Source: Octopus vulgaris
Lineage: Eukaryota
Length of the DNA: 64,000 nt
Reading direction: 5' to 3'
NCBI GenBank assembly: GCA_951406725.2
Contig: OX597822.1
Span: 20,398,001-20,462,000, forward strand
Part shown: one piece after another, positions 12,508-14,520 of the stretch
Layout of the letters: each line of letters starts with the position of its first letter
Position numbering within the stretch: position 1 is the first letter of the stretch
Notes under the pieces: generated by a model
Told to the model about the DNA's origin: nothing
Database searches by the model: none
What the model saw: the letters and a program-made list of their open reading frames with translations, nothing else
Made by a program: the position numbers and the translations under genes

Positions 12508-12705
12508 AGACGCTAATAAAACCTATGATGTTAATACAGAGAAAATTATCATGGGGTACTATGGATGATTGTATATAAACAATATTGTTATGTTGTATAA
12601 AGATAAAATTTAAGATTACTAAAAATGATATTATAACCAGAATATCATCCATAGTACCCCATGATAATTTTCTCTGTATTAACATCATAGATTTTATTAG
12701 CGTCT
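12508..12705. repeat. Inverted repeat, 62-bp arms with 74-bp spacer
   Basis: 12508-12569 is the reverse complement of 12644-12705 with one mismatch. Confidence 0.92.
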
Positions 12706-13158: not shown

Positions 13159-13204
<46 letters not shown>

Positions 13205-13208
<4 letters not shown>

Positions 13209-13848
13209 TGACGTATATTTGCCATTTGAATATGGCTAACCCCTAAGGGTGGATGCTACTGTAGTTTGTAGCCCCAGGAAGACACCTCCTCCAGCTGGCT
13301 ATAGACACACTTTCTGTGACCTATCAGTATTTGTGAAGGGAAGCCATCCTTCTCGTCTTCAACTTATGATACACACGGACTCGAGTTTCAAGGTATTGAC
13401 CTATCATCGGCGTGTGACAATCATAGTTGTCGACGAGAAGTCAGTTCCCCTCACAAATACATATACTTTTTCCAGTATCGATTGACACTGATATTGAAAA
13501 AGTGAAATCAAACAATGAAAATCTCAGAGCGAGTTATAAACAGTAGCGGCAACACATCGGGACGTATATTTGCCATTTGAATATGGCTAACCCCTAAGGG
13601 TGGATGCTACTGTAGTTTGTAGCCCCAGGAAGACACCTCCTCCAGCTGGCTATAGACACACTTTCTGTGCCCTATCAGTATTTGTGAAGGGCACAGAAAG
13701 TATTTGATAGGGCACAGAAAGTGTGTCTATAGCCAGGCTACAAACTACAGTAGCATCCACCCTTAGGGGTTAGCCATATTCAAATGGCAAATATACGTCA
13801 CGATGTGTTGCCGCTACTGTTTATAACTCGCTCTGAGATTTATCATTG

Positions 13849-13850
<2 letters not shown>
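13205..13850 (-). mobile_element. Hammerhead-bearing element: 351-bp unit, ~135-bp partial tandem copy and ~150-bp inverted tail, within (TA)n
   Basis: 13205-13340 repeats at 13556-13691 (offset 351). ~13705-13850 is the reverse complement of ~13512-13676 with an internal deletion. (TA)n on both sides. Confidence 0.88.
13372..13416 (-). ncRNA. Type I hammerhead ribozyme, U4C core variant
   Basis: cacacg-CCGATGA-tagg-tcaata-cctt-GAAA-ctcgag-TC-cgtgtg; 6-bp stem I; palindromic ACTCGAGT; GUC triplet. Confidence 0.8.
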
Positions 13851-13889
<39 letters not shown>

Positions 13890-14019
13890 TGCATGAATGT
13901 ATGTATACATGCATGCATACATACGTACATACCTATCACCTATATGATAAGCAGTTGTCCGAAAGTGTCATCACGATACCATTTACCAATGAGACGACGT
14001 TGTAGCTAGGACATTTTAT

Positions 14020-14520
14020 AATGAAATCCGTCGGAAGGATAATCCTAAGGACAAAGAAATAAGAACCCACAATATGGTAGAAGCCATAGCCACTCATAAT
14101 AAGAAGGAATACTGTTGGAATGTACAAGTGAAGACCTCAATAAAATTTAAACACAACAGACCTGATATAAAGTTTTGGGGGATAGAGAAGAGAAACTGTG
14201 CAGAGTTGTGGAAATCAGCTGTCCAGCGGATATTAACATAAAACTGAAGATCAGTGAAAAGGAGAATACCAATGCTGAATAATTAAGAAATCTGCAGTTA
14301 TTCTGTCCAGAGGACCATTTCAAGCTTATACCTGTAATTATTGGGGCCCTCGAATATGTAACACACTGCCTATATACCAATTTTGAAAATTTAGGCTTCT
14401 CAAAACCAGAAAAGAGAAAGCTAATTCTAAGACTACAGATCCAATTCATCACTGGAACTGTAAAAATCTGTAAAACTTTCCAGAAGTTTATCATTTAAAT
14501 ATATACGAGCATGTCTAGAT
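14020..14520 (+). mobile_element. R4/Dong-like non-LTR retrotransposon 3' fragment (restriction-like endonuclease), decayed
   Basis: HNRPDI...DREEKLCRVVEISCPADINI...EKEN...FKLIPVIIGAL, with stops and frameshifts. Followed by (CATA)n. Confidence 0.75.

Follow-up and report, generated by a model that had tools for sequence, protein, structure and literature searches.

Non-LTR retrozymes of metazoans are ORF-less repeats of low GC content, in which each 150-450-bp unit (350-390 bp in mussels) carries a type I hammerhead ribozyme. They range from monomers to multimers and co-occur with Penelope-like elements (PLEs), and circles of 170-400 nt have been shown in coral, mussel and axolotl (PMC7229834). 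Their mobilisation by PLEs from RNA circles is a proposed cycle (Cervera & de la Pena 2020, PMC7229834). Copying of circles over more than one unit was proposed for PLEs in 2014 (PMC4209133), and Li et al. (bioRxiv 10.64898/2026.07.22.740005) argued that retrozymes are PLE derivatives and called the mechanism open. The circle model discussed below is already a published hypothesis.

The PLE signature consists of partial tandem copies, an inverted truncated copy, a tail and a bias for microsatellites (PMC8557442, PMC3846280). Endonuclease-bearing (EN+) PLEs such as PAc (PMC11167929), Naiad and Chlamys (PMC8557442) and Adineta Penelope (PMC3846280) leave partial tandems, an inverted 5'-truncated copy and a tail of 30-40 nt that stems from two internal RT starts. 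Their targets are AT-rich or microsatellites and show duplications of 8-10 bp, and a hammerhead whose helix III is palindromic lies upstream of the starts (PMC4209133). In vitro, the RT starts at two internal sites, which produces the tail, and extends both target strands (PMC11167929). The origin of the tandem and inverted PLE structures and the mobilisation of retrozymes have been called unresolved (PMC8557442, PMC11167929, bioRxiv 2026.07.22.740005), and the circular templates proposed in 2014 and 2020 (PMC4209133, PMC7229834) came without insertion-level evidence in the parts of these papers covered here.

The insertion described here lies in a 64,000-nt stretch of Octopus vulgaris DNA (the window). 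It is a dispersed, ORF-less, hammerhead-bearing repeat of about 352 nt, that is, a non-LTR retrozyme of a known kind and no new class of element, and it shares with metazoan retrozymes the type I hammerhead motif, the unit size, the low GC content, the range from monomers to multimers and the co-occurrence with PLEs. It differs from the described ones in that its insertion anatomy could be mapped (two starts, inverted arms, duplications of about 12 bp, (AT)n target) and its multimers are homogeneous in haplotype, whereas circles and cleavage were demonstrated there and are predicted here. The EN+ PLEs resemble it in their insertion structures and hammerhead; unlike them, it has no RT/GIY-YIG ORF, the whole element is the repeat, and its tail is about 45 nt long. 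The element is ordinary in its class, and its copies give quantitative evidence on the open mechanism in the form of two rules that can be counted: each arm uses a single start site, and each multimer carries a single haplotype.

Anatomy of the insertion and its family

The segment 13205-13340 recurs at 13556-13691 with 2 mismatches in 136 nt, at the spacing of 351 reported in the preliminary description. These repeats belong to arm 1 (13205-13691, minus strand, which is the RNA sense), which comprises 1.39 units: one complete 351-nt unit (13205-13555, minus strand, GC 42%) and a partial second unit of 136 nt (13556-13691, minus strand). No long ORF was found in the unit, where the overlapping frames are stop-to-stop and of at most 83 aa. 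The outer end of arm 1 is the start site R1 (unit position 1). The insertion had been thought to end at 13691; it continues through a 13-nt head-to-head junction (13692-13704) into an inverted arm 2 of 146 nt (13705-13850, plus strand), whose outer end is the start site R2 (unit 307). The junction is made of short pieces from both arms, as read from the sequence and a 14-nt direct repeat (D6), and is probably a repair scar. Arm 2 is nested within arm 1, includes the tail of about 45 nt and has a 22-nt hairpin deletion after 13736. Both ends of the insertion adjoin (AT)n target remnants, detected by TRF on the left at 13161-13206 (period 2, 23 copies) and on the right, as (TA)n, at 13850-13886.

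The constant periodicity of 351 expected earlier holds for the direct arm of the window and not for the family. It is specific to this copy, the direct arm having lost one T that the inverted arm retains; the period is 352 in the family, 353 in its youngest subfamily and 363 in a sister family. Two neighbouring features were also recorded. A separate, MITE-like 62-bp inverted repeat (98% complementary, 74-nt spacer) occupies 12508-12705, and at 14000-14490 (plus strand) are broken frames that we take to resemble the end of an R4/Dong-type non-LTR retrotransposon that encodes its restriction-like endonuclease. Judging from other copies, these frames have no connection with the insertion.

The 2.8-Gb assembly contains many AT microsatellites. 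As exact-match lower bounds, at least 667 sites in it match one ribozyme pattern, 1,167 a start-proximal 33-mer and 450 a marker of the youngest subfamily, and tandem ribozyme pairs number at least 173. Subfamilies lie 3-11% from the window's copy, and the sister family stands at about 70-85%. The latter (L191-L202, L218-L222) is an older retrozyme family with mostly a CTGAGGA core, whose two start sites and multibranch fold match those of the window's family. A short, old retrozyme-like piece occurs with identical junction and flank at L133:2057-2108 and L140:448-502, as if captured inside another repeat. The unit is also covered by contigs of runs X1, X2 and X6 (guessed to be RNA) and X15 (of unknown kind), which show neither strand, ends, level nor circularity and were therefore set aside as evidence.

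As to class, each unit has a type I hammerhead by motif and covariation, tandem units of 352-353 nt reach 9 in number, and the sequence is non-coding with a GC content below 50%. Target duplications, where present, exceed 4 bp: exact duplications of 8-15 nt, mostly 12-13 nt, were found in 9 of 19 non-(AT)n targets. No LTR-like architecture was seen in the copies, and plant LTR retrozymes differ in having a type III motif and 4-bp duplications instead of a type I motif and duplications of about 12 bp. An autonomous EN+ PLE is not indicated either, as the flanks listed have no shared adjoining RT + GIY-YIG ORF. The two fixed internal starts that produce the tail, the presence of both tandem and inverted copies and the AT-rich target are features of a non-autonomous element mobilised by a PLE. 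In the octopus hammerhead and Penelope literature searched, the parts covered contained no description of this retrozyme family; the passages of PMC6962438 merely count hammerheads in squid.

Hammerhead motif and predicted RNA fold

As stated in the preliminary description, a single hammerhead lies inside the unit. The type I motif (13372-13416, minus strand) has the core CCGATGA at 13410-13404, a 4-bp stem II, GAAA and a palindromic stem III, CTCGAG, at 13380-13385; the predicted cut is between 13378 and 13377 (unit position 173). Rfam found no hammerhead, neither at the gathering score nor at E<=5, and the ribozyme call therefore rests on motif and covariation. The Rfam matches at E<=5 were rejected as chance matches to a hairpin and a microsatellite.

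The long imperfect rod that prolongs stem I (13327-13460, minus strand) and the hairpin noticed earlier at about 13467-13501 (13466-13502, minus strand) are both present in the MFE structure. The unit folds far better than its shuffles (z = -6.3 linear, -7.5 circular). Across 35 copies, picked from 65 for diversity, 97.5% of cells pair at the 42 named pairs of rod and ribozyme, as against 37-55% when the pairing is slid by 1-3 columns. Both sides have changed at 6 of the 42 pairs, a type of count that relatedness inflates. This covariation backs the rod and the ribozyme. In the modelled cut-to-cut monomer, the 5' end would be paired through the rod with a segment that lies 33 nt away from the 3' end.

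Stem III is self-complementary in 35/35 copies of the covariation set and, in a wider tally, is CTCGAG or CTCGGG in 94 of 102 motifs. A palindromic stem III is a feature described for hammerheads acting as dimers (PMC4209133), and it predicts dimer action here, with a modelled duplex of -10.7 kcal/mol. The window's motif has a C4 core variant and a U-U at 10.1/11.1; both are found in nature, and U4C reduces cleavage in vitro (PMC3088659). The question raised earlier of whether CCGATGA or CTGATGA is the family consensus received a partial answer. In a sample biased to the window's subfamily, 67 of the 102 motifs have CCGATGA, 32 CTGATGA and 3 CTGAGGA, which makes CCGATGA the state of a subfamily and not a one-off. 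The core of the youngest subfamily is CTGACGAG (45/47 units), and 40/47 units carry the canonical ribozyme, CTGACGAG...CGAAA. Hammerhead variants in the family include CUGACGAG, CUGAUGAU and CCGAUGAU. Other hammerhead families (L103-L106, L064) have an GAAACTCGAGT stem III in common and a different stem II.

A multibranch structure composed of a closing stem and two hairpins surrounds R1 (13540-13613, minus strand). R1 lies inside it and R2 just 3'. It is kept in the sister family, where 4 of 17 predicted pairs show double changes among 17 sequences, and it is a candidate RT-binding element.

Start sites, multimers and template

In all 19 insertions picked by the ribozyme alone, the outer ends lay at R1 (unit 1) or R2 (unit 303-315), about 45 nt apart, a distance that corresponds to a Penelope-like tail. 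The 33-mer retrieved 68 further insertions; of their 111 aligned pieces, 102 started in register, 53 at R1 (as does arm 1 of the window) and 49 at R2; the other 9 were short, divergent or off-register. The register windows, which cover about 11% of the unit, were set after the ends of earlier copies were known. These two fixed registers rule out the variable circular permutation of starts predicted in the preliminary description. It had also held that fixed ends contiguous with a PLE ORF in all copies would speak against a copied circle: the ends are indeed fixed, but apart from three segmental duplicates the copies have unrelated flanks, and no shared adjoining ORF was seen in the copies listed.

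The far ends of the arms were scattered, with a median arm length of 146 nt and 13 of 102 arms longer than one unit. No excess of arm ends was observed at the cut site, either within 2 nt on each side (2/38 versus 1.3 expected) or within 5 nt (5/40 versus 3.1 expected), and no sign of an RT stop at the cleavage site was seen. (AT)5 was present at an end in 48 of 67 insertions, and exact target duplications were found in 10/67 overall, compared with 0.06 in shuffled flanks. The insertion is very probably PLE-driven; the two fixed starts and the inverted arms likely arise because a Penelope-like RT/GIY-YIG enzyme cuts both strands and copies from both ends. PLE and circle, posed earlier as alternatives, are not mutually exclusive, and the data fit a PLE-mobilised retrozyme.

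The window's single 1.4-mer by itself cannot decide between a circle and a tandem transcript, and the earlier reading of circle copying is supported in part: a monomeric, likely circular template is indicated by other copies and not by this one. The youngest subfamily forms dispersed multimers of up to six units. From 100 listed of the 173 tandem pairs, 20 loci were fetched, 14 with at least three ribozymes and 6 dimers. Multimer arms, of up to 2,125 nt, have their starts at R1 or R2 and run into (AT)n. Some insertions are multimeric in both arms, each arm having a length of about two units or more in L227, L232, L234 and L241. In the 14 insertions with at least two complete units, after removal of 2 locally rearranged units, 29 variants were common to all units of an insertion, while permutation gave a mean of 3.3 and a maximum of 15 in 1,000. 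The 14 insertions represent 11 haplotypes, 7 of the 29 shared variants are private to one insertion, and units differ at 1.6 sites within insertions versus 5.5 between. A>G and T>C were equally frequent, which is therefore no RNA-editing signature, and editing was rejected as the source of the shared variants. Since a mutation that arose in a single genomic unit must pass through a monomer stage to occupy every unit of a daughter, homogeneous multimers favour a monomeric template. All 47 units read CGTGTGTA directly after the cut site, and this seamless crossing favours a ligated circle over jumps. Taken together, these features suggest that the template was probably a monomeric, likely circular RNA. 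Thirty-two other variants, not common to all units of an insertion, count against the model.

An unlikely alternative is that the PLE copied an uncut tandem transcript of multimer loci, the ribozyme being dispensable for insertion. PLE PAc in vitro uses and indeed prefers unprocessed RNA and needs no ribozyme (PMC11167929), which also weighs against the circle. The genome has multimer loci of 3-9 units, such a template too would give seamless junctions and no stops at the cut site, and uncut RNA from a homogeneous parent could yield a homogeneous daughter. There may also be a long master array, the tandem pairs examined being 100 listed of 173. However, each of the 11 haplotypes in the 14 insertions would require an array of its own, homogeneous and no shorter than the daughter, internal starts with 5' truncation would shorten the arrays every round, and the conserved ribozyme and palindrome would have no explanation.

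Slightly less probable again, the template could be a cut monomer that stayed linear as a pseudo-circle, with the rod holding its ends and the RT jumping over and over from the 5' to the 3' end. The same homogeneous multimers would result, and the modelled rod would juxtapose the monomer ends. Template jumps by RT usually leave scars, but no base was gained or lost after the cut site in the 47 units, no indel was found there in 100 listed of the 173 tandem pairs, and arm ends were not enriched at this position.

That insertions were born with one to two units and later grew by unequal exchange at the DNA level, as in a satellite-like expansion of a PLE terminal repeat, appears very improbable. 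This route was proposed in bioRxiv 2026.07.22.740005, and one 9-mer (L101) looks locally amplified. Against it, most of the 100 listed pairs (of 173) belong to the youngest subfamily, both inverted arms are of about two units or longer in the four insertions named above, and in L227 and L234 the units have variants in common across the inversion. The L101 array (G000:C2:14084000-14092000) has nine units, with outermost segments of an older subfamily and chimeric internal units, which suggests local DNA amplification and also counts against the circle model. It was excluded as a rolling-circle product because its ends belong to another subfamily.

Pairing of the arms and proposed mechanism

Head-to-head two-armed insertions combined one R1 and one R2 start in 32/32, 38/40 and 13/14 cases in three sets. 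Pooled without two segmental duplicates, 81 of 84 were R1+R2, three R1+R1 and none R2+R2 (p = 5e-21 against 0.5), for insertions with both starts in register; 10 with one off-register arm were left out. The tail was thus on exactly one arm in 81/84, a difference from EN+ PLEs, for which it is described as optional or "often at one end", with no strand difference in start site in vitro (PMC8557442, PMC11167929). The same pairing was seen by eye in three sister-family copies. This strict pairing rule and the non-nested arms described below are new here, and the rule is not stated in the parts covered of the literature searched. The three R1+R1 insertions and the 10 left out count against the PLE/circle model.

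The arms of one insertion differ at 2.8% of 8,147 sites, compared with 7.0% for random partners, and rare variants common to both arms number 3.3/kb versus 0.13 for a random partner and 0.43 for the closest other copy. Gene conversion could contribute to this similarity and could homogenise units as well as arms, which would count against the circle model. A>G/T>C changes make up 11 of 29 variants shared by both arms and 27 of 193 single-arm variants (p 0.003), a hint that the shared variants were already in the template. We infer that two active sites engage a single RNA at fixed positions. For rotifer PLEs it was proposed that the first cDNA folds back and primes its own copying, the inverted arm being the resulting DNA after trimming by the endonuclease (PMC3846280). 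This origin accords with the variants common to both arms, the weakly correlated arm-end positions (rho 0.38, p 0.03, 32 pairs) and the nested arm 2 of the window, but it is hardly credible here, since neither arm contains the other in 21/32 pairs and a target-primed first strand could therefore not have templated the second in these.

Overall, the data favour a PLE-type enzyme that cuts both strands of AT-rich DNA and uses the two cut ends to copy a monomer RNA that is likely circular. Loci with at least two tandem ribozymes would be transcribed, paired hammerheads are predicted to excise the monomer via the palindromic stem III, and the rod may hold both ends in place so that they can be ligated, as the analogy of mussel and axolotl retrozymes suggests. 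A staggered cut would leave ends of about 12 nt, a geometry suggested by the observed duplications. One cut end would then prime at R1 and the other at R2 of the same RNA lineage, in line with the observed pairing, with two active sites presumably engaged on one RNA. Each cDNA would run round the template and drop off at a roughly constant rate, and host repair would join the two cDNA ends head to head, as the anatomy indicates. The window's copy, with its one ribozyme, would be a dead-end daughter. Against cleavage in such elements, 8/9 Xenopus retrozyme dimers did not cleave and 1/9 did (bioRxiv 2026.07.22.740005).

A more specific version is offered tentatively: a Penelope RT dimer might load its two active sites about 45 nt apart on one ribozyme-made circle, one per cut strand, and roll up to six times. 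If true, this geometry alone would account for the PLE tail and the inverted arm as well as for the tandem pseudo-LTR and the amplification of retrozymes. The 353-nt substrate with its canonical ribozyme makes both mechanism questions directly assayable.

The search for the partner enzyme covered 30 of 148 GIY-YIG loci and 10 full-length copies and revealed no PLE homologous to the unit. Two patterns from loose contig ends gave no match, and a third retrieved the older sister retrozyme family alone. Around four other hammerhead families, no PLE-like long frame was present within about 4.5 kb. The GIY-YIG search did reveal an abundant young PLE with an intact 781-residue RT + GIY-YIG frame (L091-L100, e.g. 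G000:C16:20834500-20842500), which has no homology to the retrozyme unit and no canonical hammerhead by pattern. Copies of this PLE have their ends, next to (AT)n, at two sites separated by 38 nt, and the one informative two-armed copy uses both.
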